Assembly: GCA_963727845.1 (NCBI GenBank)
Contig: CAVSHI010000006.1
Coordinates: forward strand, 3,935 to 67,934
Source of the DNA: Ignavibacteriota bacterium
Lineage (GTDB): Bacteria > Bacteroidota > Ignavibacteria > UBA10030 > SZUA-254
Reading direction: 5' to 3'
Length of the DNA stretch: 64,000 nt
The notes beneath the pieces were generated by a model. The model saw only the letters and a list, made by a program, of their open reading frames with translations, was not told the DNA's origin and searched no databases. Position numbers and translations under genes: made by a program. Positions 10,507 through 61,442 of the stretch are shown one piece after another; the stretch's first letter is position 1; each line of letters opens with the position of its first letter.

Positions 10507-11586
10507 GGTATAATGTCCAAATTGTGTTGCTGTTTTTAGTGTGTGCATAATGACAAATACCACTGAAAGTATGCTGGACGGTGACGCTGTGCGAGACCTC
10601 GATGCTGACGATAGCGTTGTTTGAGTCGTGAGAAATACCCTTCCAAGGCATTGGTGGAACTTGCGATGAGTGGATTGTTCAGGTAATGAAACATGTTTGG
10701 AAGAGCTGCCAGTAACATGCTGCGGGCTCGTTTTAGATCGCTAAAGACGTATCCGTGCTCAGGAGTTACGGCGATATGGACGCCGTAGGTATGTTCCCAG
10801 GCATCTACACGCTTAAGAAAGTTTTTTCGATCCAATGATGAATGGATCGTTGTTACATCAAGGAAGATCTGGCGTAGATGTTTTGCGTCCGTGCGCTTGG
10901 GCATTCGTCGACACCAACTTAAGCCTTGACGCTGGATATGAACCAGGCAGCGCTGTAAAACGATTGTGGGCCATTGTCGACGTAATGCTTGGCTTAACGC
11001 CGGATTGCCATCAATAGTGGCATATTCTAGGGATAATCCCTGCTGTGCAAGGCACTGGAACAGTACACCCAAGTCTTGTGGTTGTTCCGAGACATTGTAC
11101 GCACCATGGAGCATTGTATGATTGGTCGCGTTCATGACGGCAAGGATCCCTTTGCGACGATTGATGAATGTCCCATCAACAATTGCGTAAACAGATTGAC
11201 CCAAGGATGGATGTGGTCCCGGCGGCGGTTGTTGCAGCCAGTACTCGATAATACGACGGATGGTTGATACACTGTGTACACTTTGTCTGGCAAGTTGACG
11301 TAGCGTGTATCCTTCAACCAGCCATCGTTGGAACCACACAAAGCTTCGTAGGCGTTTATTCGTTTTGTTTTGCCAGACGAAGGAGTGTTGACATGAATGA
11401 CACAACCATCGTTGACGCTGTGGGCGCAGTGTTCCATTACGTTTAACATGGACTGAGCCGCAATGAGGACAATGTTTTTTTCATAAATAATGGTCAATCA
11501 TTGAACCGTTTTAACCTTAGTATCCGTAAACGAATACAGGAACACAAATTACAGTCATCCGAGCAACACTTTTTGAGCATTATACC
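10507..11586 (-). mobile_element. IS1595-family insertion sequence, 1080 bp, with 9-bp perfect terminal inverted repeats (GGTATAATG / CATTATACC) and a 7-bp target-site duplication CAGGATG
   Basis: The terminal inverted repeats are at 10507-10515 and 11578-11586. The direct repeat CAGGATG flanks them at 10500-10506 and 11587-11593; it extends to 8 bp with one mismatch. The element carries a DDE transposase gene and has lower GC than its flanks. Confidence 0.75.
10536..11484 (-). CDS. IS1595-family DDE transposase (Zn-ribbon CPHC..CHSC, HTH, DDE domain); frameshifted in an A7 run right after the start codon
   Basis: ORF 10536-11405 has an HTH (GYTLRQLARQSVHSVSTIRRI) and the IS1595-type C-terminal motif TNALEGYFSRLKQRYRQHRG. 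The same frame continues upstream as KKHCPHCGSVHVKRNG...WLCHSCQ with no start codon. ATG 11484 lies in the adjacent frame just before the A7 run (11475-11481 on the + strand). Confidence 0.7.
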
Positions 11587-22198: not shown

Positions 22199-23503
22199 TC
22201 AGCAAGCGATGCGGGCCAGTACTTCGGGTCCCCGCTGTTGGATTGACCGCCCTGAAATCATTTCTATTTTTCTCTGCACCGAACGCAAGTAATCGAAGCT
22301 GAACGGGCTGTGCGGCTCAAGTTCGTCGATGTACGAACGCGTGAAGAATTTTCCCCCCCGGGCTACGGCTTCGAATATGAGCACCCTGCAACACGACAAA
22401 CTGAAATCGGACAACGTCCCGGCGTCCGGGCCTGAGAACACATCCTTCGCGCAAAAAATTTGTTGAGTGAAATTGAATAATCGATTTGTGGTTTGCTCAA
22501 TCGACCGCTGCCCGGGATGCTTCGAGAAAATTGTGATGTGGGCGTTACCAAGATCCTGCTCTATGTCCTGCAGGTCGTCGATGAATTGCAGGGCAACGCC
22601 GTATCCGAACATAAATTCGGCAACATTTTCGGGAAGGTTTCCGGCGGTCAGGTAGGCATCTGCTAGAACGGAGGCGCCCCCTTTTCCCATGCTCACACCG
22701 AGAATCTCGCCTGTCGTCGGGGATATGCCATAATCTTGTTGTTCCAGGCTTTGCCTTTGAGCCCGATGAATCGCCAGGAGACTCTCGTACACCATCGCGT
22801 GCGATGCCCGTGGAAACTCCGTCTCAATGTATTCGAGCAAGCGCTGGATCTTCTTCAACCGGGGGGATGTGAGGTGCACTTCTGTGCCTGCGAGGAGTTC
22901 TTCCACCGTGGAGAGGAATCTCCGCTTGTCCGGGCGGGTTACATTTGGGTCGTCCAGCAAATTGTCGGTGTACGGGTACAAAAGGCTGTAGGCAAACGCC
23001 GACGGTGTCAGCGTCGCCTTTTTGCCCAGGTATGTCTGGATGCTGTTGACGATCAAAACATTTCTCAGGGCTTGATAAAGGTCCTCCTGAGAGAGTTGGG
23101 GATCAAACGCCGTCGCCCGGCGGACGAATTCGACTGCAGATGAAAAGTAACTGTCCAGAATATCCGCGGGCAGTCCGTGGCGCCCCGCGTGGGATGACCC
23201 CGACATGAACGGAACCACAAGTTCTTTTATCCGCTCCGGATGGATCTGTTCAGCGCCGTTCCATGCCTGTATTTCAGAGCGGGCTCTCGCGAGGAGCCTA
23301 TCGAGATCGTTTTGGTGTATCTTCTGCTCTTCTGAGGAGTAACGCTTCTCAAGACAAGGTTTCTGGGAGGGAGTGTTTTCCCAAAGTTCCGAGAATTTCT
23401 TCTTCAGATCACGAATCGTGGTCGTGGTGCCGTCGCCGGGGACAGCCACGGTGCTTTTTCGTGTCGTCGTGAGTTCTCTCTCGTGTTGTCTGAGCTCAAA
23501 CAT
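22199..23503 (-). CDS. terpene-synthase/isoprenoid-synthase-fold protein; candidate YtpB-like large terpene synthase (DUF2600-like)
   Basis: It has two Asp-rich motifs about 140 aa apart: PYTDNLLDD...RPDKRRF and GVALQFIDDLQDIEQD. The first resembles the DYLDNLxD motif that replaces DDxxD in large terpene synthases. The second resembles a second Asp-rich motif (G-AFQ--DDxxD). Confidence 0.4.
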   Translation of the reverse strand: MFELRQHERELTTTRKSTVAVPGDGTTTTIRDLKKKFSELWENTPSQKPCLEKRYSSEEQKIHQNDLDRLLARARSEIQAWNGAEQIHPERIKELVVPFMSGSSHAGRHGLPADILDSYFSSAVEFVRRATAFDPQLSQEDLYQALRNVLIVNSIQTYLGKKATLTPSAFAYSLLYPYTDNLLDDPNVTRPDKRRFLSTVEELLAGTEVHLTSPRLKKIQRLLEYIETEFPRASHAMVYESLLAIHRAQRQSLEQQDYGISPTTGEILGVSMGKGGASVLADAYLTAGNLPENVAEFMFGYGVALQFIDDLQDIEQDLGNAHITIFSKHPGQRSIEQTTNRLFNFTQQIFCAKDVFSGPDAGTLSDFSLSCCRVLIFEAVARGGKFFTRSYIDELEPHSPFSFDYLRSVQRKIEMISGRSIQQRGPEVLARIAC

Positions 23504-23651: not shown

Positions 23652-23708
23652 CCCTCTCCCCTTCAATTCCCCTCTCCCGCAAGCGGGAGAGGGGAAAGGG
23701 GTGAGGGT
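23652..23708. repeat. nested palindromic repeat, family B copy 2 (CCCTCTCCC ... CCCTCTCCC-GCAAGC-GGGAGAGGG ... GGGTGAGGGTT)
   Basis: The inner palindrome is at 23670-23693. The same GGGTGAGGGTT tail occurs at 16075-16085. Confidence 0.65.
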
Positions 23709-26302: not shown

Positions 26303-29146
26303 ATGAAACAAACCCGCAACGTTGATTCCTCTTGTTGTGCTGTTTTCCTCCGGAGGATTTCCCTCGGTATATTTATCCTTCTGGCCGGATATGTCTCTTT
26401 TGTGTTCGCAGGCAACACCGGCAAGATTGCCGGCAAAGTGACAGACGCGAAGACGAAAGAGGCGCTGGTTGGAGTGAATGTGATTGTTCAAGGAACGACA
26501 CTGGGCGCCGTGACGAATCTTGACGGTGATTACACAATTCTCAATATTCCTCCCGGCGCGTATACGTTAAAGGCGTCGATCCTGGGATATGACCTCGTGA
26601 CGGTCAATGAGGTCCGGATTTCCATCGACCTGACTACTCGTCAGGACTTTGCGCTGACTGAAACGGTTATGGAACAAAAGGAAGTTGTGATAACAGCACA
26701 GCATCCTCTTGTTCAGAAAGACCTTACTGCGACCACCGCGGTCATCGGGAAGGAGGAGATTGCGGCGCTCCCTGTGACAGAAGTGTCTCAGCTGTTGAAT
26801 CTCAAGGCGGGGTACGTCTCGGGTAGCCTCCGTGGAGGACGTACGGGTGAAGTCGCCTACTGGATCGATGGGGTACCGGTAACGAACGCCTACGACGGAA
26901 GCCAGGTGGTTGAAGTAAACAAGAATATGGTTCAGGAAATGCAGGTCGTTTCCGGCGCGTTCAATGCCGAGTACGGTCAGGCGATGTCGGGTATCGTCAA
27001 CATAGCGACGAAAGAGGGCGAGAGTAAATTTCACGGAGGACTGAGCGGGTATGGCGGGCAATATGCCACGTCATCCGATGCCAATTATGATCAGGAGGGT
27101 CACGAGATTTCAGAGCTCTTCCCGGGGCTCAACCGTTTTCAGCCTACCGCGATCCATGACATCGAGGGCAACCTCAGCGGTCCACTGATTGGAGATGCAT
27201 TGACGTTCTTCGCAAACGCCCGCTATATTTATTTCGGCGGTGATTTTTACGGAATCCGCCGTTTCAATCCTCAAAACGTCGCTTACTTCGACAGCAGCAA
27301 TAATTATCACCTCTATAGAGATCCATCGGGCAAAGGAGACAGCTCATTTGTCCCGATGAACTGGAGCGAACGGTCGTACGCACAGGGCAAGTTGACCTGG
27401 CATATCAATCCTACGCTGAAGCTCACCGGCAATTTCATCTACGACGACGACGTGGCGAAGGCCTACGACCGGACCTATTTTCTCGACCCGGACGGAAAGG
27501 GCAATAACTACAATGTAAGCAATACGTTTATCTTCCAGCTCACGGACATGCTCAGTCCAAGCACGTTTTGCACGCTCGGTGGGTCGTACTTCGACAAGGA
27601 CTTCCAGTACTACCTCTATCAGGATCCGCACGACCCGCGGTATGTGAATCCCGGCGTGGCTATTTCCACGGAGCCGTACAGCTTCCTGACGGGCGGCACG
27701 GATCTCGGGAGGTCTCACCAGGTGACGATCACGAAACTTTTGAAGTTCGACCTCTCGAGCCAGGTCAATCAGAACAATCTCATAAAAGGCGGAGTGGAGT
27801 TTCGCCTGCATCATATCTATGATGAGAATATGACTCTCATCCCGGTGCAATCCGAGGTGGCCTTCAACCGGGTGACGAGCAACCCGTACATCCAGACGGA
27901 AATTCCGGATCTCGGGACGGTAAATCATGATATGTACAATCACAGTCCCGTGGAACTCTCCGGATACATTCAGGACAAGCTTGAGTTCAGTAGTTTCATT
28001 CTGAACATTGGTATCCGGTATGATTATTTTGATCCCAATGCCCTGGTACTCAACGATGCCCATCCGGATCCGAACGACCCTCTTCACCATATGTATACGG
28101 TCGATGACCCGGACATCTATTCCCCTATAACTCCCCAGCACCTGGCGGACAATCTAAGCATGAGGGAGACGTATTGGTATAAGAAAGCCTCGGTCAAGAC
28201 TCAGTTGAGTCCGAGGATAGGCGCATCGTTTCCGATCACGTCCACGGGTGTCGTACACTTTTCGTATGGTCATTTCTTCCAGATCCCCAACTTCCAACGG
28301 CTATATGAAAACCCGCAGTTCGTTCTGGGTCAGGGTACCGGAAACCAGGGCTTGTTTGGGAATGCCGACCTGGCAGCCGAACAAACGACCAACGGTGAGC
28401 TTGGCATACAGGAGCAGGTGGCGGAGGGCCTCTCGATGGACCTGACTGCCTATATTCGCGACATCCGGAATCTTACGAGCTCCAACAGCCAAACGGTCAT
28501 CTACGGTGGCTCCGCGATGTATACGCAGTATCAGAACAGTGATTTCGGGTATGTCAAGGGAGTTGTCCTGACGATGAAGAAAAGGTTCAGCGAAAAATTA
28601 TCGGCCACTTTGGATTACACATACCAGATAGCACGGGGCACGGCCTCCGACCCGACGCAGGCTCGCACGGCCCTTATTGGCGGTGCGCTGCCGGAGGTCC
28701 AGATTGCACCGTTGAACTGGGACCAGCGGCACACCGCGAATGCAACATTGTCCTACGATTCGCATCCGTGGGGGTTCGGTCTTATCGGGCAATACGGCAG
28801 CGGTACTCCATACACGCCGCAAACCATCGCCAGCGACATCAGTACGATCCTGACAAACAGCGAATCGAAGCCGACGTTCTTCGACCTGGACGCACAGGCG
28901 TATTATGAATTCCAGACGCACCCCGTAAAGGTTGTCCTTTTCGCGCGCGTCATCAACCTCCTCGACATACGCAATGAAACCGGCGTGTTCCCCCTGACGG
29001 GAAGGGCGGATTTCACTCCCGAGGAGCAATTAGCGTACTCGACCAATCCCGCCCAGGATGTGAATACTGTCGATCAATACTATCGGTATCCCGACCATTT
29101 TTCCGAGCCAAGACGTATTGAAGTCGGTTTGAATTTTGATTTCTAA
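26303..29146 (+). CDS. TonB-dependent outer-membrane receptor with an N-terminal carboxypeptidase-regulatory-like domain
   Basis: The CarbopepD_reg-like segment is GKIAGKVTDAKTKEALVGVNVIVQGTTLGAVTNLDGDYTI. It is followed by a plug region and a long beta-barrel. TATCTTTG at 26234-26241 is a possible -7 box. Confidence 0.75.
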   Translation: MKQTRNVDSSCCAVFLRRISLGIFILLAGYVSFVFAGNTGKIAGKVTDAKTKEALVGVNVIVQGTTLGAVTNLDGDYTILNIPPGAYTLKASILGYDLVTVNEVRISIDLTTRQDFALTETVMEQKEVVITAQHPLVQKDLTATTAVIGKEEIAALPVTEVSQLLNLKAGYVSGSLRGGRTGEVAYWIDGVPVTNAYDGSQVVEVNKNMVQEMQVVSGAFNAEYGQAMSGIVNIATKEGESKFHGGLSGYGGQYATSSDANYDQEGHEISELFPGLNRFQPTAIHDIEGNLSGPLIGDALTFFANARYIYFGGDFYGIRRFNPQNVAYFDSSNNYHLYRDPSGKGDSSFVPMNWSERSYAQGKLTWHINPTLKLTGNFIYDDDVAKAYDRTYFLDPDGKGNNYNVSNTFIFQLTDMLSPSTFCTLGGSYFDKDFQYYLYQDPHDPRYVNPGVAISTEPYSFLTGGTDLGRSHQVTITKLLKFDLSSQVNQNNLIKGGVEFRLHHIYDENMTLIPVQSEVAFNRVTSNPYIQTEIPDLGTVNHDMYNHSPVELSGYIQDKLEFSSFILNIGIRYDYFDPNALVLNDAHPDPNDPLHHMYTVDDPDIYSPITPQHLADNLSMRETYWYKKASVKTQLSPRIGASFPITSTGVVHFSYGHFFQIPNFQRLYENPQFVLGQGTGNQGLFGNADLAAEQTTNGELGIQEQVAEGLSMDLTAYIRDIRNLTSSNSQTVIYGGSAMYTQYQNSDFGYVKGVVLTMKKRFSEKLSATLDYTYQIARGTASDPTQARTALIGGALPEVQIAPLNWDQRHTANATLSYDSHPWGFGLIGQYGSGTPYTPQTIASDISTILTNSESKPTFFDLDAQAYYEFQTHPVKVVLFARVINLLDIRNETGVFPLTGRADFTPEEQLAYSTNPAQDVNTVDQYYRYPDHFSEPRRIEVGLNFDF

Positions 29147-29152
29147 ATAGAA

Positions 29153-32100
29153 ATGATCAACAGCAAAATACAAATAGTTGCAGCCGCACTTGCCATAGCG
29201 CTCCTGTCGACGCCGGCGTGGACTCAGCAGGGCCAGAGTGGCGCCTCCTATCGAAAAATCAATATTCATAATGCCAACCAGGTCCGAACCGTTTTCGGAA
29301 ACTGGGGTGTTATTGGTCAGCCCTGTAGCGGTGGACCGCGCGGCGCCTGGAGATATGATAATGACGGTTATCTCGGTGATGTGAGTCCGCTTGTAGGCGC
29401 CGAAATCACTTCACAGGGAACGACATTCCATTGTGTTGAGGGCTCTCCTGTCGACCGGCCCACGACGGCGACGGATACGGATCCGCGCACCGGTAAGTAC
29501 TGGACGTTCGAGCCGGTGAATGGTTACAATAATCCGAACGGACAGGTCCTTGCAATGAGCACCGACCCGACCTCCTGGCCGCCCTCTTGGCCCGATAAGG
29601 CCGCCGATCCCCTCGATCCAGGATGGCGAGGAGAGTGGAACGGCTACTTCGGAAAGAACGTCATGAACGCCGACCAGGAAAGCTATTTCGTGATGGACGA
29701 TAACAACAATGACCGTTTCAATTATAGCGTGAACAACTCGTTTAATGTCGCCTTTAAACCGGATTCAACTGACTCTACCAGGAATGGACTGGGGCTGGTC
29801 ATGAGCGTTCGCGGGCTCCAATGGGCGCAGTTCCTTGCAAAGGATAATATTTTCTGGCTGTACGAGATCGACAACACTGGAACGACAAATTACACGAAGG
29901 TCGTTTTCGGGCTGCTTGTGGGTACGTATGTCGGCGTCACGGGGTGCAACGACGCGCCGATGGAGTACGATAACGATTGGTCATTTTATGATGTTCAAAC
30001 CAACCTGACGTACACCGGGAATTATCCGCCCACGCAGATGAAAAATCCCCTCTGGATCGGCAACGTTGGGTTGGTCGGATATGCCTTTCTCGAGAGCCCC
30101 GGGAATCCCTACGACGGCATCGATAACGATGGAGATGCCGACTCAAGTATCACGGGCAAGGCAGCTCCACAATTTCAGGAAAGCGATTTCAGCGACTCAA
30201 CGTTGGTCGTACCGGGCACAAAGCTCATCCTCATCGATACGAACTATGTCCGGAGCATCTATACGGTGCCGAACGTGGATTCGGTTCTCGTCCACACGCG
30301 CGGATTCTCCATGATGCTTTACCCCCATGCCATTCCTTCTCAGTACATCAAACCGGAGGGGAACGTCCTGTACGACGCGGCCCACAATCCATACGTCAAT
30401 CCTAATGCGTATGATGGAGTCGACAACAATTTCAACGGACTCATCGATGAGAATTACTACCTGCATTATCATCAGATCAAGAAAGATCCCAAAACAGGTC
30501 ACGTCCTCATCGATATTCTGCGACCCCTTCGGCACATCAATTACCTTACGGGTGCCGGGAGCGATCCCTATAGTATGATCGACGAACGGCGGGATGACCT
30601 GATCGACAACAACCTCAACTGGAACATTAAGTTCGACGACGTCGGGATCGATGGTGTACCGAATACCGGGGACTACGGGGAAGGGGATGGTCTGCCCACG
30701 TCGGGATATGCACGGCCGCTGTTAAATGAACCGGGTGAGCCGCATGTCGACAAGACGGATGTGGATGAATCGGACCAGATCGGTCTGACGAGTTTCTATT
30801 ACTTTACTCCTGCCAACAATCTTTCCCTTGCCGACAAGGAAGGTCTGTGGAAAGATGTGGCTCCCGGTTATTTCGACGTTCCCACATCGATCGTGAACAA
30901 TAGGCCGCAGGGGGGCGAGGACGGAGACTTCATGTATTCTTCCGGCTATTTCCCGCTCCTGGCCGGCAAGACGGAGCGCTTTTCCCTCGCGCTTGTCTAT
31001 GGAGGACTCACCGATGACATCGATGCAAACCTTGCAGATCTGCTGAAGCACAAAATAACCGTCCAGAACATTTATAATGCAAACTATCAATTTCCGAAAC
31101 CCCCGGACAAGCCCACTGTGACGGCGGTCGCCGGTGACGGACAGGTAACGCTTTATTGGGACAGGAAAGCCGAGCAGACAATCGATGCCGTGCTTCATGT
31201 CAAAACGTTTGAAGGATACAAGATCTATCGCTCGACGGAATCGAACTTCGCCGACATCTTTACGATCACCGATGCGAGCGGGGATCCGGTGGGCTACAAG
31301 CCTCTGGCACAATTCGACCTGAAGGATGGGATCACCGGTTACTTCATCGCTCCGCCGGACCTCTTCCAGGATAACGCCGGGTATACGTACTATCTGGGGA
31401 ACGATACGGGCATTGTCCATACGTATGTCGACAAAACTGTTGAAAACGGTCTAAGATATTTCTACGCTGTGGTTGCATACTCCCGCGGCGACAACACGCT
31501 CGGAATTTTTCCGGCCGAGAATGACAAGTTCGTGAGCATAAACTCTTCCGGAGTGATCACTCATGGCATTAATGTGGCGGTGGTGACTCCCTCGGCCCCT
31601 GTCGCAGGGTATGTGCCCCCGACAACCGCCGTTCCGGTTACACATATAGCCCGCTACGGCACCGGCGAAGTCTATTACAACGTTGTGAATCCATCCACAA
31701 TCATGGGTCATACGTACAGAGTCGAATTTTTCGACACTGAAATTGACAGTGTTGATGCGGCCGGAAACCCGGTCGTGAACACGACCGATTCTACCACATG
31801 GACGCGCCTCACGACGCTGTATTCTGTGAGGGACCTTGCGACAATTTCGGAGAATTTCGTAAGCCTGGACACGGTACTGGTCTATCTCAGCAACCAGAAT
31901 CTGGTCGCCTCGACGGTTGTCGTGAGTGACAGCAGGGGCAACGTCGTGTCCCCTTCGAAATATCACCTCGATGTAACGCGGGGAACGATAAAATCTGCAA
32001 CTCCCGGGAGTCTCCCTGTGGGGAACTACCATGTGTCGTACCAGCATTATCCGGTCTACCGAAGTGCGAACATTCTCGGTTCACCTTTTGTGAACGAAGC

Positions 32101-32974
32101 CAAGGATGCGGATATTTTTGACGGTCTCAAGTTAGGCTTCAACAACGCCTGGAACATCACTGAGATTGATAGTTTGTCGCGTTGGATAGGGCTCAATCCG
32201 TATGTGTTCAGTTTCACTCCGTTGAATATTTCGAACCCCTCGATGCTTGGATACCGGCGGCCGGCGGACTACGAATTTCGGTTCTCCGACCATATTGTAG
32301 ACACATCTGTGGCGAGTACGGCCCTTTTTCTTGGCGCCACTCCGACCAATTTCAGGGTTTATAACTTGACGGAAAGCACCTATGTGAAGTTCTATTTATC
32401 CCAAACTCGTTTCTTCAATAACCAGCTATCCCCCGGGGATGATGTTGTTTTCCTCGAAAAGAGTCCAAGGGGTGACTACGTTCCGACATGGGATGTCCCT
32501 TTTGACAGAAAAGCCAGTGACAAGAACGACTCCGTATACAATTTAACGGTGGGCGATACGCTTCGAATCAGAACAACCAAGCCGTTCCATTACGGCGACA
32601 TCATGGAGTTTACACCGATTTTGCAACGGGTCAGTCAGGATACGGCCAAGAATACTCTTTCCCGCATCAAAGTCGTTCCCAACCCGTACGTGACTGCTTC
32701 CTCCCATGAACTGCCGTTGCCGCCGGGAATTACGAGCGGCCGCGGGGATCGGAGGGTCGAATTTATCCACGTCCCGGCCAGCGCAAAAATACAGATATTT
32801 ACATCCCGGGGAATCCTCGTGCGTACGCTGTACCAGGATGGGAATATTGAAGACGGAACGGTCGTATGGAATCTCAAGACGGATGAGAACCTGGATATCG
32901 CGTTCGGTGTATATTTTTATGTTGTGCAATCCAGCGTGGGATCCAAGACCGGGAAAATCGCGATCATCAAATGA
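29153..32974 (+). CDS. large secreted surface protein (1273 aa) with Ca-binding DxDxDG-type repeats, an Fn3-like domain and a T9SS C-terminal sorting domain
   Basis: It has a signal peptide. The repeats are GIDNDGDAD, DGVDNNFNGLIDEN and DVGIDGVPNTGDYGEGDG. The Fn3-like segment is KPTVTAVAGDGQVTLYWD...GYKIYRST. The C-terminal 100 aa match the T9SS sorting-domain pattern (VVPNPYV...GVYFYVVQ...KIAIIK). Confidence 0.65.
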   Translation: MINSKIQIVAAALAIALLSTPAWTQQGQSGASYRKINIHNANQVRTVFGNWGVIGQPCSGGPRGAWRYDNDGYLGDVSPLVGAEITSQGTTFHCVEGSPVDRPTTATDTDPRTGKYWTFEPVNGYNNPNGQVLAMSTDPTSWPPSWPDKAADPLDPGWRGEWNGYFGKNVMNADQESYFVMDDNNNDRFNYSVNNSFNVAFKPDSTDSTRNGLGLVMSVRGLQWAQFLAKDNIFWLYEIDNTGTTNYTKVVFGLLVGTYVGVTGCNDAPMEYDNDWSFYDVQTNLTYTGNYPPTQMKNPLWIGNVGLVGYAFLESPGNPYDGIDNDGDADSSITGKAAPQFQESDFSDSTLVVPGTKLILIDTNYVRSIYTVPNVDSVLVHTRGFSMMLYPHAIPSQYIKPEGNVLYDAAHNPYVNPNAYDGVDNNFNGLIDENYYLHYHQIKKDPKTGHVLIDILRPLRHINYLTGAGSDPYSMIDERRDDLIDNNLNWNIKFDDVGIDGVPNTGDYGEGDGLPTSGYARPLLNEPGEPHVDKTDVDESDQIGLTSFYYFTPANNLSLADKEGLWKDVAPGYFDVPTSIVNNRPQGGEDGDFMYSSGYFPLLAGKTERFSLALVYGGLTDDIDANLADLLKHKITVQNIYNANYQFPKPPDKPTVTAVAGDGQVTLYWDRKAEQTIDAVLHVKTFEGYKIYRSTESNFADIFTITDASGDPVGYKPLAQFDLKDGITGYFIAPPDLFQDNAGYTYYLGNDTGIVHTYVDKTVENGLRYFYAVVAYSRGDNTLGIFPAENDKFVSINSSGVITHGINVAVVTPSAPVAGYVPPTTAVPVTHIARYGTGEVYYNVVNPSTIMGHTYRVEFFDTEIDSVDAAGNPVVNTTDSTTWTRLTTLYSVRDLATISENFVSLDTVLVYLSNQNLVASTVVVSDSRGNVVSPSKYHLDVTRGTIKSATPGSLPVGNYHVSYQHYPVYRSANILGSPFVNEAKDADIFDGLKLGFNNAWNITEIDSLSRWIGLNPYVFSFTPLNISNPSMLGYRRPADYEFRFSDHIVDTSVASTALFLGATPTNFRVYNLTESTYVKFYLSQTRFFNNQLSPGDDVVFLEKSPRGDYVPTWDVPFDRKASDKNDSVYNLTVGDTLRIRTTKPFHYGDIMEFTPILQRVSQDTAKNTLSRIKVVPNPYVTASSHELPLPPGITSGRGDRRVEFIHVPASAKIQIFTSRGILVRTLYQDGNIEDGTVVWNLKTDENLDIAFGVYFYVVQSSVGSKTGKIAIIK

Positions 32975-49288: not shown

Positions 49289-50302
49289 ATGAAAATGAGG
49301 TTTCTCGGCAAAACGGGAATAAAGGTCTCGGAGTTGTGCTTCGGCACGATGACCTTCGGCGGCAGCGGCTACTGGAAGGTGATAGGGGAGCTCGGGCAAA
49401 AAGAAGCAGACAAACTTGTCGGAATGGCGCTGGATGGAGGAATAAACTTCTTTGACACGGCCGATGTTTACTCGGACGGAGTCTCCGAAGAATTGCTTGG
49501 CAAAGCCCTGGGGGTGAGGCGCAAAGATATCGTTCTGGCAACGAAGGTCCGGGGACGAACCGGTCCCGGTCCGAACGACATAGGCCTTTCCCGCCATCAT
49601 ATCATTGAGGGATGCCATGCCAGTCTGAAAAGACTCGGAACAGACCACATCGACCTTTATCAGGTGCACAGCTTCGACCCGTCCACTCCACTGGAAGAGA
49701 CGCTTGGAGCGCTGGATGACCTGGTGCGACAGGGAAAAGTACGCTACATTGGCTGCTCGAATTACAGCGGCTGGCAGTTGATGAAAGCTCTCGCACTGTC
49801 CGAGAAGCGCAACCTCGAGCGCTTTGTTACTCTTCAGGCTTACTATTCACTCATTGCACGCGAGCTGGAGCATGAGCTGGTTCCCCTTTGCCTCGATCAG
49901 GGACTGGGGATCCTGCCGTGGAGTCCGCTGGGGGGTGGTTTTCTCACCGGCAAGTACCGCCGCGGACAGCCGAGGCCCCAGGGTTCCCGCCGGAGCGACC
50001 CCGAACATCAGTTTCTCAGGTTCGATGAAGAAAAAGGATTTGATATCGTCGATGAACTCGACAGAATATCAAAAGCGCACGGCGCCACGGTGACGCAGGC
50101 AGCTCTCAACTATCTCCTTCGGAAGCCCGCAGTTACCTCGATCGTTATCGGCGCACGCACGCCGGAGCAGCTCGCCGATGAGCTCAAAACTTCCGATTGG
50201 GACATGACGGCGGAGGAAGTTGCCCGGCTCGACGAGATGAGCAAGCCGCCCCGGGTCTATCCGTACTGGATGCTGGAATTTGGCCGCCAGGAGCGCATGT
50301 GA
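49289..50302 (+). CDS. aldo/keto reductase
   Basis: AKR signatures span the protein (MKMRFLGKTGIKVSELCFGTMTFGG ... IDLYQVHSFDPSTPLEETL ... IGCSNYSGWQ). Confidence 0.85.
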   Translation: MKMRFLGKTGIKVSELCFGTMTFGGSGYWKVIGELGQKEADKLVGMALDGGINFFDTADVYSDGVSEELLGKALGVRRKDIVLATKVRGRTGPGPNDIGLSRHHIIEGCHASLKRLGTDHIDLYQVHSFDPSTPLEETLGALDDLVRQGKVRYIGCSNYSGWQLMKALALSEKRNLERFVTLQAYYSLIARELEHELVPLCLDQGLGILPWSPLGGGFLTGKYRRGQPRPQGSRRSDPEHQFLRFDEEKGFDIVDELDRISKAHGATVTQAALNYLLRKPAVTSIVIGARTPEQLADELKTSDWDMTAEEVARLDEMSKPPRVYPYWMLEFGRQERM

Positions 50303-51240
50303 AACAGTACGATCTGGCAATCGCATGGAACTGGGAGTACGATGAAGACTACATCGGCGGCATTCAGCGGGAATGCGAACAACGGAGAGTATCAGTGTTG
50401 CAAATCAAGCCCGGGAACCTCAACGAAATATTGGAGAATCTTCGGAACGGAACCGTGGGCTTCCGCGCGCTTTATGACCGCGCCTCGGATGCCGACGAGG
50501 CATTCGTACCCCTTGTAACATTGCTTGGGCAGGATTCCGTTCGCGTTATTAACCCGCACGAACGGGTGCGGCCCGCGATCGATAAGGCAACGATGCACCT
50601 GGAATTCTTCGCCCACGGCCTTCATGTTCCCCAAACGATCATCCTCCCGCCGTACAACAAGAAAATGCAGATTGAGATTGTGTTGTCGGAATTGGATGGT
50701 CTCGGAAAGCCATTCGTCATCAAGCCGGCCAATACAACCGGCGGAGGGACGGGCGTTGTGCTCAACGCCCGGACAGTTCAGGATATTGTCGACGCTCGCC
50801 AGCATCACAAAGACGACAAGTACCTGCTCCAGAAAAAGATCGAGCCGGCAAACCTCGATGGGAAACGAGCTTGGTTCCGCGTTTACTATGCCTTCGGAGA
50901 GATCATCCCATGCTGGTGGGACGATATCACGCACATGTACAGCCAGCTCGTTCAGACCGACGAGGAACGATTCGGCCTCGGCCCTCTGCGCGATAGCATG
51001 CGGACCATCGAACAAATTTGTAAGCTCGATTTCTTTTCATCTGAAATCGCGATGACGACAGACAGGACGTTCATCGTGGTCGATTACGTCAACGAGATTT
51101 GCGACATGCGCCTGCAATCGAAATTTCATAATGGCGCCCCCGATGCCGTGGTGAATCGCATCCAGATGCTTCTCGCACTCGCGGTAGAACGACATGTACA
51201 TAGTGAAACGCATCAGGAATTCATCGGACACAGCGGGTAG
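50299..51240 (+). CDS. ATP-grasp-fold protein (RimK/glutathione-synthetase-like) of unknown substrate
   Basis: GTG 50299 overlaps the AKR stop (GTGA). The ATP-grasp core is [20 protein letters not shown] ... [10 protein letters not shown] ... [12 protein letters not shown]. Confidence 0.55.
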
Positions 51241-57817: not shown

Positions 57818-58675
57818 TTACGCTCGCGGACTGACGATAGGGTCGTCCGCATGTCGCGCTGCTATTCTCTCGAGGAATGTCTCAACCTGATACTTGCTTT
57901 GTTCAGCGTTTTCAAGGATTGAATTGAAGGATTCGAATTGAACTCCCGTTTTTTCCCTCGCATCCGTTATTGATAGATCGTTGGATTCAAAGGTCTGGAT
58001 GGCGGACACGATAAAAATCCAGCCAAGGATCTCCTCGAAACGTTCTTTGTTGAACCAGAGCACATTGTCCCACCGGTTTACCATGAGGAATTCTCTGACG
58101 TGCGGGTCGACCATCGCGAACGCTACCATTGAAACCAGCTCAGCACCATGAGGCTCATGGAATCTTTCCAGCGCCTTCAGAAGCCGAAATTCCCGATTGG
58201 CCTGGCCTTCGTCGATTCCGCTCCGGACGAATGAATAGATGAGCGGCTTTGCGAGCCTCCAGCGGTCGAAGAGGTCATCCTGCCAGTCGTTCTCTTCGAA
58301 TATCGACTCGCTCACATGACTCACAACTATCCAGGAGAGAATTGTTCGCCAGCCGTCCAGACGTTCCTCGTCGTGATTGGGGAACTTCTTTAGAATGAAT
58401 TCCTGCCAGATCTCCTTCTTCGAACCTTGTTCGGCGGACTGAATTAACTGCTGAAGTGAGATGAATTCCTTTCGAGCTTTCAGGGTCACATCAACGGATT
58501 TCAGCGGTTTGTGCTCAACTTCCGCGGTGGCTTGCGCGACCGAACGAATTGAATGGTCGAGTGAAGCAAGTACCCCGGAGGTGACGTGTCCGTCCTTCCA
58601 TCCCGACTTGAGAGATCGCAATCGTTCGGGCGACAGTGCTTCCCGGATAGCTGAGTGGAGTGGAGTCAACTGCAT
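57818..58675 (-). CDS. hypothetical protein (286 aa); possibly the displaced C-terminal region of the upstream 921-aa GH13 through a +1 frameshift
   Basis: ATG 58675 lies 2 nt after the GH13 stop. The same frame stays open and third-position GC is high for about 30 codons upstream (KSTKDAPYDVLATSLNGQGVPSVGEALLD). The last 25 codons in the GH13 frame are Arg-rich and low GC3, so they look out of frame. Confidence 0.45.
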   Translation of the reverse strand: MQLTPLHSAIREALSPERLRSLKSGWKDGHVTSGVLASLDHSIRSVAQATAEVEHKPLKSVDVTLKARKEFISLQQLIQSAEQGSKKEIWQEFILKKFPNHDEERLDGWRTILSWIVVSHVSESIFEENDWQDDLFDRWRLAKPLIYSFVRSGIDEGQANREFRLLKALERFHEPHGAELVSMVAFAMVDPHVREFLMVNRWDNVLWFNKERFEEILGWIFIVSAIQTFESNDLSITDAREKTGVQFESFNSILENAEQSKYQVETFLERIAARHADDPIVSPRA

Positions 58676-58676
58676 A

Positions 58677-61442
58677 TCAAGGAGAGCTTCTCCGACCGAC
58701 GGCACGCCCTGACCGTTGAGCGACGTTGCGAGCACGTCGTAGGGCGCATCCTTTGTGGACTTCGACTTCCCGGAAATCGAGGAATACGTGATACTTGAAA
58801 GCGTCCAATTCGATGTACAATCCCTGATGTCGCAGCTCGCGGTCGGAACGGATGTACTCGAGTCCGGAGATGGCATCGCGAAAGATAGAATACAACCGGG
58901 AATTGTCGTTGAGACCGAGTCCATCGGCGAGTTGCCGTTGGATGAGCCCCCCTCCGGGGCCCGCAAATGCGACCGAAGTCTTGATCCATCCGGACGTATG
59001 GGTGAATCTGTTGTTGTACACGATCAGAGAACGCTCGTTATTGTATCGATTGCTGTAAGCGAAGACATCTTCGTTCACGATTCCCTCTTTCGTAAAGAAA
59101 TCGTAGAGCAAAAAGTTATCGACGTTGGCGAAAAGATGCCGTTTCTTGACCAATGGGAATATTTCTCTTTCATGGCGGTCAACGAGATGCCGATTGGGCT
59201 GTTCATCGTAGTAAGCGCGACGGTATTCCATTCCATATTTTTCGCCGAAGCCCTCGATCTGTCCGTGACCGAACATCGGAAGCCCTGGGAGGGTTACCAT
59301 GAGGACGCATACGCCGAAGTACTTGTTGTCTTTTCCAAACTGTGCAACCGCGGTTTCTTCGTCCGGATTGTTCATGAAGTTCACAAACCGCTTGAGGATT
59401 TGCGGATTGAATTCGAGGACATTCTTCATCACAGAGCGGTAGTTCGCGTTTTCTTCCTTTTTCAACATGTTCATGAACGCGCTGTTGTACACGCGGTGCA
59501 TGCCGAGGGTTCTCACGAAATATCCCTCCATCAGCCAGAATGCTTCCGCGAGAAGGAGTGTGTCGGGGGCTTCCTGCTGCACACGGTCCACGACTTCCCG
59601 CCAGAATTCCTGCGGCATCAATGAGTCAAGTTGTGCCCTTGTCATCGCGTAGGACGCGCGGGAAGGGATTGCCCCACCGGTGCCGGGTTCAGGAAACCAG
59701 AGTCGCTGAAAATGTTTCTTCGCGAGGGTCATTGCTGCATCGAAGCGAATCACCGGAAACAACCTGGCAACATGGAGGATCGTTTGTATGACTGCCTCAC
59801 GGACATCGGACCTGAGGAAGTTCAACTGTGCCGTGTCATTCCAGGGCATATGTGTGCCGTCGTTGCCGTGATACAGGTATTTAACATCTCCGGTCCAGCG
59901 GTCGAGGCGCTTGAAAACTACCGCCGCATCCGTTTTCCGCCAATAGCCATCCTCGATGAAGATACCGACGCGGTCGTTATCGCTGAGATCCGGTCCCGCA
60001 AACGTGTAGTTCGGGAAGGGGGGATAATCGCTTTGAACAAACCAGTCCGGATGGTTGATCACCCACGACGAATCGATTCCCATGTGATTCGGGACCATGT
60101 CACTCGCAAGGCGTATGCCTCGCCGGAAAGCCCGATCGCGCAATCGTTGAAATGCTTGTTCGCCGCCGAATTCAGGGGCGATGTCATAATTCAGGAGAGA
60201 ATACGCGGAGGCGAGAGCTTCCGGATTTCCTGAAAACCTCTTGATGCGTTCTGAAGCGCGACTTCGCTGCCAGATGCCGATGAGCCAGAGCCCTGTGATG
60301 CCGCGCCGGGCCAGGGCGTCGAGTTCCTCGTCCGGGATTTCATCAAGGCGGGAAATGCGGCGCTGGTACTGTTTACTCAGTTGATCGAGCCAGACAAATA
60401 TGTTCTTTGCAATGAGCACAAGCCGGGGCATCCAGTCAAGGTCGGTGCTAAACCTCTCCGGTTCAAACTCGTAGAGCGGGCCTGTGAATGAGGGCACGAT
60501 GGCGGATTCTTTGTCGCCGGCACCGAACTTGTTGAGGCGACCGAGCACGGGTTTTCTCAAGCGGTCGGCTTCGGCCTGAGCGCGCATCAGCAGGTATTTC
60601 CCTTCCTCCCGTATGAAATCCATCGCTCCCAGGAGTTTCGTCAAAAGTTGAGAGCCTGCAAGTATCGAAATCCAGTGCGTCTTTATGAATTCCAGTTGTC
60701 CCATGATCGAGTCGGGCGATGAAGCCGCGGGCGCAAGGAGCATCTCGATCAGAGGTTGATTCGCGGGTCCGTAACCGGGTTGCGTTCTGAAGAATGCCTT
60801 CGCCTTGCTGATTGCATTGTCATAGACAGTTCTTTCCGCGAGTTCACGGTCGTCAACGAGCTCGATAACCGACTGGAACGCGGGGTTTCGATTTTGCAGC
60901 CACACGAGGAACATCTCTTCGAGAGAGATTTGACGGTTCGGAATGCTGCCACTCCTGCCACGGAGATACTCAGCGGGTGATTCATCCTTCTTGTAAACTG
61001 AAAGAGGTGGAAATTCAATGGTCAATGTCTTCAGGAGGTCATCGAAGGGCTGAGCGCCCAACCCGGTCTTGAGGTCAATATCACATTTTGGCAGGACATC
61101 AGGATTGCGTTCCTGTCTGTAGCGGTCAATAACAAAGTGAAGGATTTCGTGCCAGAGCCCCATCGCATAGATCTCAGACGGCAGCACAAGGTCATTTGCT
61201 TCAGCACCCTTCGTCCGTCGCTGCTGATTGATATATTCGGCGAACATCTGGGCAGCCCGGAAGTTGGAGAGGACGAGATCTCCCTGGATTGAAAAGAACG
61301 TGTCTTTGAACTGGAATTCATCACGCGCACGGCGCGAGATGTGAAACTCGAATCGTTGTGCGCCGTTGTGACTTCTGTTTCGGGCAATTCCGCAATAAAT
61401 GGTGCTCATACCATGAAGAAAGTACGCAAGAAATGAAACCAA
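58677..61442 (-). CDS. cytoplasmic GH13 alpha-amylase-family protein (921 aa, region I motif DMVPNHMG); subfamily undetermined
   Basis: There is no signal peptide. The GH13 regions are GITGLWLIGIW (beta2); DMVPNHMG (region I); RFDAAMTLAKKH (region II); LLLAEAFW (region III); FVNFMNNPDEE (region IV). Confidence 0.75.
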   Translation of the reverse strand: MVSFLAYFLHGMSTIYCGIARNRSHNGAQRFEFHISRRARDEFQFKDTFFSIQGDLVLSNFRAAQMFAEYINQQRRTKGAEANDLVLPSEIYAMGLWHEILHFVIDRYRQERNPDVLPKCDIDLKTGLGAQPFDDLLKTLTIEFPPLSVYKKDESPAEYLRGRSGSIPNRQISLEEMFLVWLQNRNPAFQSVIELVDDRELAERTVYDNAISKAKAFFRTQPGYGPANQPLIEMLLAPAASSPDSIMGQLEFIKTHWISILAGSQLLTKLLGAMDFIREEGKYLLMRAQAEADRLRKPVLGRLNKFGAGDKESAIVPSFTGPLYEFEPERFSTDLDWMPRLVLIAKNIFVWLDQLSKQYQRRISRLDEIPDEELDALARRGITGLWLIGIWQRSRASERIKRFSGNPEALASAYSLLNYDIAPEFGGEQAFQRLRDRAFRRGIRLASDMVPNHMGIDSSWVINHPDWFVQSDYPPFPNYTFAGPDLSDNDRVGIFIEDGYWRKTDAAVVFKRLDRWTGDVKYLYHGNDGTHMPWNDTAQLNFLRSDVREAVIQTILHVARLFPVIRFDAAMTLAKKHFQRLWFPEPGTGGAIPSRASYAMTRAQLDSLMPQEFWREVVDRVQQEAPDTLLLAEAFWLMEGYFVRTLGMHRVYNSAFMNMLKKEENANYRSVMKNVLEFNPQILKRFVNFMNNPDEETAVAQFGKDNKYFGVCVLMVTLPGLPMFGHGQIEGFGEKYGMEYRRAYYDEQPNRHLVDRHEREIFPLVKKRHLFANVDNFLLYDFFTKEGIVNEDVFAYSNRYNNERSLIVYNNRFTHTSGWIKTSVAFAGPGGGLIQRQLADGLGLNDNSRLYSIFRDAISGLEYIRSDRELRHQGLYIELDAFKYHVFLDFREVEVHKGCALRRARNVAQRSGRAVGRRSSP

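Follow-up and report, generated by a model that had tools for sequence, protein, structure and literature searches.

A widespread family of predicted class I isoprenoid-fold proteins, mostly from anaerobic bacteria, that is separate from the BalTS/YtpB large terpene synthases

The 434-residue protein examined here, from an Ignavibacteriota bacterium, is best read as a member of a deep, separate and previously uncharacterised branch of the class I isoprenoid-synthase (trans-IPPS/terpene synthase) superfamily. We put at roughly 55% the probability that the ORF encodes a soluble, ~49-kDa enzyme that depends on Mg2+, ionises a prenyl diphosphate and represents a new branch of this superfamily. The protein is not a class IB enzyme (BalTS/YtpB, DUF2600), the group that a sequence-only reading had suggested. 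Within the window, the whole 64-kb stretch of DNA that was analysed, its gene is one ordinary member of a widespread family.

The gene and its conserved residues

The features discussed below are as follows; percentages refer to 250 homologues.

22199..23503, minus strand: ORF of the class I isoprenoid-fold family (434 aa, ATG start, stop codon at 22199-22201)
23670..23693, no strand assigned: palindrome with a perfect 11-bp stem, in the gap separating the 434-aa ORF from the S46 peptidase gene upstream of it
23174..23503, minus strand: N-terminal appendage, residues 1-110 (three predicted helices, lower pLDDT, poorly conserved)
22202..23173, minus strand: predicted catalytic core, residues 111-434 (class I isoprenoid-synthase alpha-fold model)
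23060..23074, minus strand: QALRN block (Q144, A145, R147 and N148 at 99-100%)
22949..22990, minus strand: motif 1, YSLLYPYTDNLLDD, Y172-D185 (recognised by invariance and helix-end position)
22925..22927, minus strand: K193 (97% conserved, 13 residues past D180)
22748..22771, minus strand: IHRAQxxS block (I245 and Q249 invariant; H246 and S252 above 90%)
22658..22684, minus strand: KGGASVLAD block (K274, G275, G276 and S278 invariant; D282 98%)
22553..22600, minus strand: motif 2, GVALQFIDDLQDIEQD, G302-D317 (family consensus GxxLQxxDDLQDxxxD)

Translation confirmed the coordinates of the ORF, and because public data hold an exact copy of the protein as well as homologues with E-values down to 1e-198, it is a real gene. 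The gene stands alone: the claim that no isoprenoid gene lies nearby holds across the whole window, in which Pfam searches of about 35 large ORFs returned only glycoside hydrolases, T9SS cargo, peptidases and glycogen/starch genes. The palindrome upstream suggests that the ORF is transcribed on its own; a scan for sigma-70 promoters and terminators around the gene gave background-level signals only.

The two aspartate-rich strings on which the sequence-only reading was built, PYTDNLLDD (residues 177-185) and QFIDDLQD (residues 306-313), are both present in this ORF, at a separation of 129 residues rather than the approximately 140 first given. Among 250 homologues D180, D184, Q306, D309, D310, D313 and D317 are 100% invariant, so the motifs are not products of chance; N181 is conserved at 98% and D185 at only 66%. 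In the AlphaFold models the two motifs cap the C-terminal ends of two helices. Motif 1, with the family consensus YS(M/L)LYPY(T/S)DNxLD, ends a helix spanning residues 167-184 that is kinked at P177 and that also carries the aromatic residues Y172, Y176 and Y178; D180 and D184 are its predicted Mg2+ ligands. Motif 2 fits both the second Asp-rich motif of the E-IDS (SARM: QxxDDxxD) and a CrtM/NSE-like triad with the spacing D-x3-D-x3-D.

About 20 residues are invariant in the family over nine phyla. The polar ones include Q144, N148, Q156, S173, Q249, S278 and T324, and the conserved single basic residues are R147, K193, R232 and K274. R147, in the QALRN block, is a candidate diphosphate-binding residue. 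K193 is the sole conserved residue within the RPDKRRF string that begins at residue 190; E-IDS carry RRG at this position, 13 residues after D180. The IHRAQxxS block is collinear with the 'GQxxD' region of E-IDS, and the KGGASVLAD block lies 30-32 residues ahead of Q306, comparable to 'KT' in E-IDS and 'AGT' in CrtM. In the N-terminal appendage only W41 is near-invariant. Comparison of residues 111-162 with 163-232 gave no internal repeat, and comparison of the mid-segment, residues 161-300, with E-IDS and CrtM was likewise negative.

Predicted fold, distribution and neighbourhoods

The alpha-helical isoprenoid-synthase fold anticipated from the sequence is borne out by two AlphaFold models, one of the full-length protein (pLDDT 86.6, pTM 0.87) and one of the core alone, residues 111-434 (pLDDT 93.9, pTM 0.91), together with Foldseek searches. 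As modelled, the protein is all-alpha with a class I isoprenoid-synthase fold. All 100 listed Foldseek matches (the top 50 for each model, PDB entries for the full-length one) are class I isoprenoid enzymes, with a probability of at least 0.96 over both models and of 1.00 for every one of the 50 core-model matches. The latter include CrtM, OPPS, FPPS, GGPPS, Sat1646, HpnC and hydropyrene synthase, with TM-scores up to 0.63. Likeness to solved enzymes is moderate (TM 0.55-0.63 at about 12-17% sequence identity, or 10-18% when all solved enzymes are counted), and removing the N-terminal appendage did not lower the target-normalised TM-scores.

Clustering at 50% identity divides the family into at least 1,042 clusters, and its members come from no fewer than 577 species of nine phyla, mostly anaerobes, among them Clostridia, Anaerolineae, Bacteroidota, Ignavibacteriota, Acidobacteriota and candidate phyla. 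Tissierella simiarum, Clostridium acidisoli, Leptolinea tardivitalis and a Proteiniborus sp. are cultured hosts, and the family can therefore be tested directly. HMM searches with the query and 42 members found no Pfam or NCBIfam model that claims the family, and literature searches found no paper on it, while a few NCBI records already label members 'class 1 isoprenoid biosynthesis enzyme'. Searches of PADLOC and PHROGs and a plasmid tblastn returned no matches. The gene is accessory, patchily distributed and mostly monocistronic, and its sequence changes more quickly than those of neighbouring housekeeping genes (71% versus 87-93% identity).

Neighbourhoods were compared at 85 loci using our own ORF calling and all-versus-all clustering. 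No E-IDS gene lies within 10 kb on either side at any of these related loci, no neighbour family is adjacent in more than four of them, and no partner is linked to the gene at 54 of 83 loci. Several candidate associations were set aside: the ABC-exporter 'cluster' seen at 15 loci mostly does not adjoin the gene, linkage to YebC reflects simple synteny within one Bacteroidales lineage, MsrB lies 3-4 kb away at two loci, and a UbiA plus methyltransferase context is unique to one locus (L006). At four Clostridial loci, where the family proteins share only 50-58% mutual identity, a gene for a small PspC-domain envelope-stress protein lies 4-30 bp upstream. PspC also occurs within ~1 kb at two further loci (L033 and L064), where the family proteins are ~40% identical to the four Clostridial ones. 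NUDIX hydrolase genes neighbour the family gene at two loci, as do pairs of ABC exporter genes at two. Overall, the neighbourhoods offer no guide to the reaction.

Proposed reaction and competing readings

Our proposal starts from the modelled class I fold and from the two helices that end in the invariant D180-N181-x-x-D184 and Q306-x-x-D309-D310-x-x-D313-x-x-x-D317. The two acidic motifs would coordinate a Mg2+ cluster, to which an allylic prenyl diphosphate from primary metabolism would bind through its diphosphate group; R147, K193, R232 and K274 may aid diphosphate binding. With the diphosphate gone, an allylic carbocation would remain, enclosed by a pocket that the invariant Y172, Y176 and Y178 would line. 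The least certain step is the last, in which the cation would be quenched intramolecularly or by water or a base. A terpene-synthase-type, non-elongating outcome that yields one conserved product is our tentative preference, held at somewhat less than even odds. That the family consensus, by inspection, lacks the E-IDS IPP/diphosphate-site motifs GGKRxR, RRG and GK favours a non-elongating reaction, and the invariance of about 20 residues over nine phyla points to a single conserved product, not to a varied range of them.

The main competitor, which we regard as possible but doubtful, is that a second substrate traps the cation, making the protein a prenyltransferase that performs coupling or prenyl transfer rather than a cyclase. 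Candidate acceptors are IPP, in a divergent chain elongation, another prenyl diphosphate, or a polar non-isoprenoid; models for such reactions are the head-to-head or irregular coupling of CrtM/SQS and CqsB4, a CrtM-like carbazole prenyltransferase. The only above-chance sequence signals point this way. The IspB hhalign score of 33.5 was reached by none of 60 shuffles, and the signals for IspA and CrtM by one of 60 each, that for CrtM (score 24.8) being too weak for membership. A PDB profile search gave a SARM-type match to octaprenyl-PP synthase (E=0.016). Likeness to the E-IDS (PF00348; IspB/OPPS, IspA) extends to the class I alpha-fold (TM 0.55-0.63) and to the string Q-x-x-D-D-x-x-D-x-x-x-D, which is the SARM residue for residue: Q306, D309, D310 and D313 of the pattern (F)QxxDDxxD are invariant and align to the SARM of OPPS/IspB. 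The Q and K landmarks are collinear with matching spacing (69/25/32/3 here, 74/23/39/3 in IspA and 65/21/38/3 in IspB).

Several properties separate the family from these enzymes. Its first motif, D180-N181(98%)-x-x-D184, does not have the DDx2-4D form of the E-IDS FARM, and in the best IspB alignment the FARM falls on residues 113-141 rather than on D180-D184, so motif 1 may belong to an insertion particular to this family. Global hhalign alignments forced onto IspA and IspB were uninformative outside the second motif. The protein is ~130 residues longer, with the 110-aa N-terminal appendage, and whereas E-IDS genes are housekeeping, the present gene is an accessory orphan with no linked acceptor-pathway gene. 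The missing IPP-site motifs also count against a transferase.

CrtM brings its own likenesses. It is the top Foldseek match of the core model (E=7.9e-4, TM 0.59), CqsB4 is among the full-length matches, and two D-x3-D motifs can be read in the family, as in CrtM and HpnC (PF00494). The arrangement G-T, 30 residues, Q-x-x-(N/D)-x3-D-x3-D has identical spacings in CrtM, including the G-to-Q distance of 30. Unlike the squalene/phytoene synthase family, the present family has neither YxxxVAGxVG nor NIxRD, and unlike PF00494 enzymes it has no hopanoid or carotenoid gene context. Sub-threshold matches scatter over these families: PF00348 in two of 42 members (best E=0.05), PF00494 in one (E=0.077, below the gathering score), the HpnC model in one (E=0.037) and a polyprenyl transferase NCBIfam model. 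They agree with a prenyltransferase, but no member reaches a curated threshold. The presence of about ten more invariant polar residues, in addition to those of the Asp motifs, suggests that there is a second, defined binding site; if Q144, N148, Q156, S173, Q249, S278 and T324 mark a polar second-substrate site, a transferase would be favoured.

Canonical terpene cyclases (PF19086/PF03936; pentalenene and selinadiene synthase) have the same fold (Sat1646, TM 0.56/0.61) and a similar orphan context, and accessory, patchy, monocistronic orphan genes are typical of bacterial terpene synthases. The spacing of the motif 2 acidic triad mimics their NSE/DTE. Yet the family lacks DDxx(D/E), has DDxxDxxxD as motif 2 and lacks the conserved C-terminal RY pair in its consensus; its conservation over phyla is much above the cyclase norm. 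The terpene-synthase model Terpene_syn_C_2 matches one of 42 members (E=0.014), and pentalenene synthase reaches an hhalign probability of only 0.2-0.3% against the family profile. Classes ID, IE and IF offer a parallel as class I-fold enzymes that sequence models miss, that were found by structure and that often lie outside gene clusters (Abe et al. 2024, PMC11234867). By their published description alone the family is set apart from these actinomycete proteins, which have other motifs; those of class ID are D(N/D), ND and RxxKD, the first two ~194 residues apart (PMC11234867).

A further reading, improbable in our view, is a YisP-type phosphatase or hydrolase acting on prenyl diphosphates, which would release a prenyl alcohol and adjust membrane or lipid-carrier pools when the envelope is stressed. 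YisP itself is the precedent: it has a squalene-synthase-like fold and only cleaves off the diphosphate, leaving a prenyl alcohol. The PspC genes close to the family gene, the NUDIX and ABC exporter neighbours at two loci each, and the resemblance of the modelled core to CrtM/HpnC are consistent with it, but the PspC linkage is confined to one clade and to at most six of 83 loci. YisP is not known to retain its second Asp-rich motif, whereas both motifs are invariant here. Mechanistically, such an enzyme would be a subset of the ionisation model and inseparable from it by sequence.

Less probable still is the class IB assignment, in which a YtpB/BalTS-type enzyme would turn C25-C35 head-to-tail prenyl diphosphates into sesquarterpene-type products. 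The family and BalTS/YtpB do have in common a class I fold without canonical DDxxD/NSE, non-canonical Asp motifs, a stand-alone gene and the substring Y-x-D-N-L-x-D. The resemblance to DYLDNLxD noticed earlier is therefore real as a short string (YxDNLxD), but it is no sign of family membership. PF10776 (DUF2600), carried by all 120 listed true BalTS homologues, matches neither the query nor any of 42 members even at E<=10. Profile-profile alignment gave a probability of 0.35% with BalTS and of 0.16% with a profile built from 25 class IB sequences; in greedy mode it was 1.3%, with the first motifs not aligned. The BalTS score of 16.4 lies within the range of shuffles (15.5±2.8) and was reached by 20 of 60. 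In the structural comparison, BalTS (5YO8) was not among the top 50 Foldseek matches of either model. Homology to class IB was thus detectable at none of the levels tested (HMM, profile-profile and structure search), and the forced global alignment was uninformative outside the second motif.

The motifs themselves differ as well. BalTS carries DYLDNLxD and DY(F,L,W)IDxxED, in which each of six Asp is essential (PMC5939612). In the register P177-Y-T-D180-N-x-L-D184 the first of these Asp corresponds to P177 (98% Pro), and in the FIDxxxD register of motif 2 L305 takes the position of the BalTS first Asp. In the hhalign register D309, D313 and D317 can be paired with BalTS D249, D253 and D257, a D-x3-D-x3-D pattern that E-IDS and CrtM have too. 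The Asp motifs are 129 residues apart here versus 161-165 in class IB, and the listed class IB matches are from Bacillaceae whereas the present family is mainly from anaerobes. In E-IDS, a bulky residue four positions before the Asp motif limits chain length; by analogy, the invariant Y176, four residues before D180, would argue against long substrates. A large C25-C35 substrate, C35 included, is not indicated.

The least probable reading of all, that of a non-isoprenoid helical protein with a superficial fold likeness and acidic motifs for another metal or ligand, could appeal to TM-scores of at most 0.63, the low identity to solved enzymes and the lack of a family model, but runs against the uniformly class I structural matches, the exact reproduction of the SARM-type motif and its spacing, and an IspB score far above shuffles.

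Implications

Terpenoid biosynthesis is usually considered scarce in anaerobic bacteria. Should the family prove catalytically active, it would constitute a new class I isoprenoid subclass of more than 1,000 clusters that conventional terpene-synthase and prenyltransferase HMMs miss completely, and would disclose isoprenoid chemistry in Clostridia, Anaerolineae, Bacteroidota, Ignavibacteriota, Acidobacteriota and candidate phyla, groups in which it is little known. We propose YSxLYPY(T/S)DNxLD, followed by KGG(T/A)S and then LQxxDDLQDxxxD, as the family signature. From conservation this unusually strong, a single defined product that serves the cell's physiology seems more likely than a diversified secondary metabolism. 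It is conceivable, though we would not count on it, that the family is a functionally distinct subclass making a single conserved isoprenoid in anaerobes of at least nine phyla. Its chemistry, be it cyclisation, irregular coupling or transfer, would then not be predictable from the known classes, and its product might possibly be a membrane-active lipid linked to envelope stress.

An orphan gene of a widespread family

The open reading frame singled out by the sequence-only reading is real: its checked translation encodes 434 aa, and public data contain an identical protein. The features of the window that concern us are these.

22199-23503 (-): the query gene; its protein has PYTDNLLDD from residue 177, RPDKRRF from residue 190 and QFIDDLQD from residue 306
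23670-23693: perfect palindrome, CCCTCTCCCGC-AA-GCGGGAGAGGG, 11-bp stem, found once in the window between the stop codon of the upstream S46 peptidase gene and the query start; it looks terminator-like, though without a T-run
Elsewhere: rhamnosidase/GH123 hydrolases, T9SS-sorted amylases, S46 and other peptidases, a TonB-dependent receptor, MsrB, a TMEM260-like glycosyltransferase and glycogen genes
10536-11405 (-): 289-aa ORF, probably what is left of a transposase (weak match to the Mutator family, E=2.5e-6); the GH123 cluster and an alpha-galactosidase gene flank it
29153-32974 (+): 1273-aa ORF immediately after a TonB-dependent-receptor-like gene (26303-29146); no Pfam match; the syntenic loci L001 and L002 have a conserved counterpart of ~1300 aa
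38102-61442: starch/glycogen block with two T9SS-tailed alpha-amylases, a sugar ABC transporter, PFK, GlgC, a GlgA-like synthase, a pullulanase and GH77; its ORFs 50197-51240 and 57818-58966 have zero Pfam matches

The nearest relatives of the query (71-75% identity) come from Bacteroidota MAGs, in which the order of genes is the same. Family proteins are typically 400-450 aa. Scoring the 8,000 best word-sharing candidates gave more than 1,159 matches among 90%-identity clusters; there are 1,042 representatives at 50% identity (524 with E<1e-30), and at least 577 species genomes carry the family. The best 80 loci, mostly from anaerobes, span nine phyla: Bacillota/Clostridia (35), Chloroflexota/Anaerolineae (15), Bacteroidota (10), Acidobacteriota (9), Ignavibacteriota (4), Actinomycetota (3), KSB1 (2), Verrucomicrobiota (1) and Bipolaricaulota (1). 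No member carries a precomputed Pfam domain, and the query and 42 aligned members had no match at threshold in Pfam, NCBIfam, PADLOC or PHROGs. A few members are already named 'class 1 isoprenoid biosynthesis enzyme' in NCBI records; our literature search found no paper on the family.

As the sequence-only reading had supposed, Pfam scans of about 35 large ORFs of the window reveal no other isoprenoid gene, and the flanks of the 85 family loci analysed contain no trans-isoprenyl diphosphate synthase (E-IDS). When all ORFs of 85 loci were clustered, no neighbour family was adjacent in more than four, and a tightly linked same-strand partner is absent at 54 of 83 non-redundant loci. Recurrent Pfam domains among 49 putative operon partners are PspC (5), ABC exporter (4 proteins, 2 loci), NUDIX (2) and GNAT (2). 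At four Clostridial loci (PspC gene at L020, 9489-9941; L037, 9470-9988; L063, 9426-9944; L066, 7067-7603), whose family proteins share only 50-58% mutual identity, a small membrane protein with a PspC domain is encoded 4-30 bp upstream; at L033 and L064, with family proteins ~40% identical to those four, its gene lies within ~1 kb. This linkage, confined to one clade, hints weakly at a role in the membrane or envelope. At a metagenomic locus (L006, 9921-13032), genes for a methyltransferase, a 474-aa uncharacterised protein and a UbiA prenyltransferase stand immediately downstream of the family gene, a methyltransferase/UbiA arrangement seen at 1 of 85 loci.

Between the window and a syntenic Bacteroidota relative (family gene at L001, 8001-9296), neighbours are 87-93% identical, MsrB 79% and the TonB receptor 58%, whereas the family protein is 71% identical; it has thus evolved faster than most of its neighbours, which fits an accessory enzyme.

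Predicted fold and invariant residues

The full-length AlphaFold model (42-sequence alignment; pLDDT 86.6, pTM 0.87) is all-alpha, with helix 167-184 terminating in motif 1 and helix 292-312/314-319 in motif 2. All 50 top Foldseek matches in the PDB are class I isoprenoid enzymes (maximum target-length-normalised TM 0.57), including octaprenyl-PP synthase (OPPS), FPPS, GGPPS, CrtM and CqsB4 as well as trichodiene, linalool and aristolochene synthases, so the isoprenoid-synthase fold proposed earlier stands. A core model of residues 111-434 (70 sequences; pLDDT 93.9, pTM 0.91) resembles three branches about equally: head-to-head (CrtM, E=7.9e-4, TM 0.59; HpnC, TM 0.59), head-to-tail (OPPS, TM 0.59; FPPS, TM 0.63) and terpene synthases (Sat1646, TM 0.61). 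Deleting residues 1-110 never lowered target-normalised TM (5ze6_C, 0.56 to 0.59; 3lvs_B, 0.57 to 0.63), so the canonical fold is contained in residues 111-434 and the first 110 residues form an appendage.

Across 250 aligned members, Q144, R147, N148, Y172, S173, Y176, D180, D184, I245, Q249, K274, G275, G276, S278, G302, Q306, D309, D310, D313 and D317 are 100% invariant; N181, K193, R232, D282 and T324 are at least 95% conserved, and D185 only 66%. The two expected Asp-bearing motifs are present, 129 residues apart rather than about 140; of the supposed RPDKRRF motif only K193 is conserved. The true signatures are YS(M/L)LYPY(T/S)DNxLD, KGG(T/A)SVLAD and LQxxDDLQDxxxD. Such invariance over nine phyla argues for a single defined reaction.

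Relationship to known class I enzymes

The query had been likened to the class IB large-terpene synthases BalTS/YtpB. Their first motif is DYLDNLxD, as the sequence-only reading gave it, and their second is DY(F,L,W)IDxxED (PMC5939612). PF10776, which marks 120 of 120 BalTS homologues among the matches listed, has no match at threshold in the query or 42 members. The family had an hhalign probability of 0.35% against BalTS (sequence from PDB 5YO8), or 0.3-0.4% in the calibrated comparison, and its score of 16.4 was reached by 20 of 60 shuffled BalTS sequences (15.5±2.8). Against a class IB profile of 25 of the listed homologues the probability was 0.16%, the sole local match placing family motif 2 on class IB motif 1; greedy mode gave 1.3%, with class IB motif 1 on residues 112-120, not YTDNLLDD. 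BalTS is missing from the Foldseek top 50 for both models, the essential first Asp of DYLDNLxD corresponds to P177, and motif spacing is 161-165 residues in BalTS versus 129 in the query. On these grounds we reject class IB membership; the shared Y-x-D-N-L-x-D is coincidence of a short string, or convergence. Nothing points to a C25-C35 substrate.

Signal is instead found towards E-IDS and CrtM. E. coli IspB scored 33.5 (shuffles 15.0±2.9, 0 of 60 reaching it; probability 12-27%), S. aureus CrtM 24.8 (1 of 60; 2.4-3.6%) and E. coli IspA 24.7 (1 of 60; 3.3%); pentalenene synthase, compared by probability alone, gave 0.2-0.3%. In a PDB profile search, motif 2 falls on the second Asp-rich motif (SARM) of octaprenyl-PP synthase (E=0.016), and the IspB stretch YLGTAFQLIDDLLDYNAD pairs with the family's GYGVxLQLIDDLQDxxxD. 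The spacing D180-Q249-K274-Q306-D309 is 69/25/32/3, against 74/23/39/3 for equivalent landmarks in IspA and 65/21/38/3 in IspB, and G276-Q306-D309-D313-D317 (30/3/4/4) is identical to CrtM G135, Q165, N168, D172 and D176. Together, the calibrated scores, SARM match and spacings suggest that the family branches deeply and separately within the trans-IPPS/class I superfamily.

The first motif aligns less simply. The best IspB alignment places the E-IDS first Asp-rich motif (FARM) helix on residues 113-141 (EFxxxAxxFDP...D; DNA 23081-23167), not on the invariant D180-D184 helix; no similarity to E-IDS or CrtM could be detected in segment 161-300, nor was there an internal repeat in the query. By spacing, invariance and TM on N-terminal deletion, D180/D184 is the more likely functional first motif.

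Candidate reactions

The enzyme would bind and ionise an allylic prenyl diphosphate in a Mg2+-dependent manner, with R147, K193, R232 and K274 as candidate diphosphate-binding residues and Y172, Y176 and Y178 putatively lining the carbocation pocket. Head-to-tail and head-to-head synthases have a common second metal-binding motif, which the family keeps. Its first motif is D-N-x-x-D, and the IPP-site motifs that chain-elongating enzymes carry are missing from it. Given those missing motifs and the accessory, orphan character of the gene, we tentatively favour a terpene-synthase-type, non-elongating fate for the cation (probability about 0.4). Coupling or prenyl transfer after ionisation would accord with the E-IDS/CrtM-like signal and the numerous invariant polar residues; the missing IPP-site motifs speak for the non-elongating reaction, and we think coupling or transfer somewhat less likely. 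Hydrolysis, for which YisP is a precedent, seems very improbable. Our overall reading of the query is a genuine enzyme from a known superfamily.
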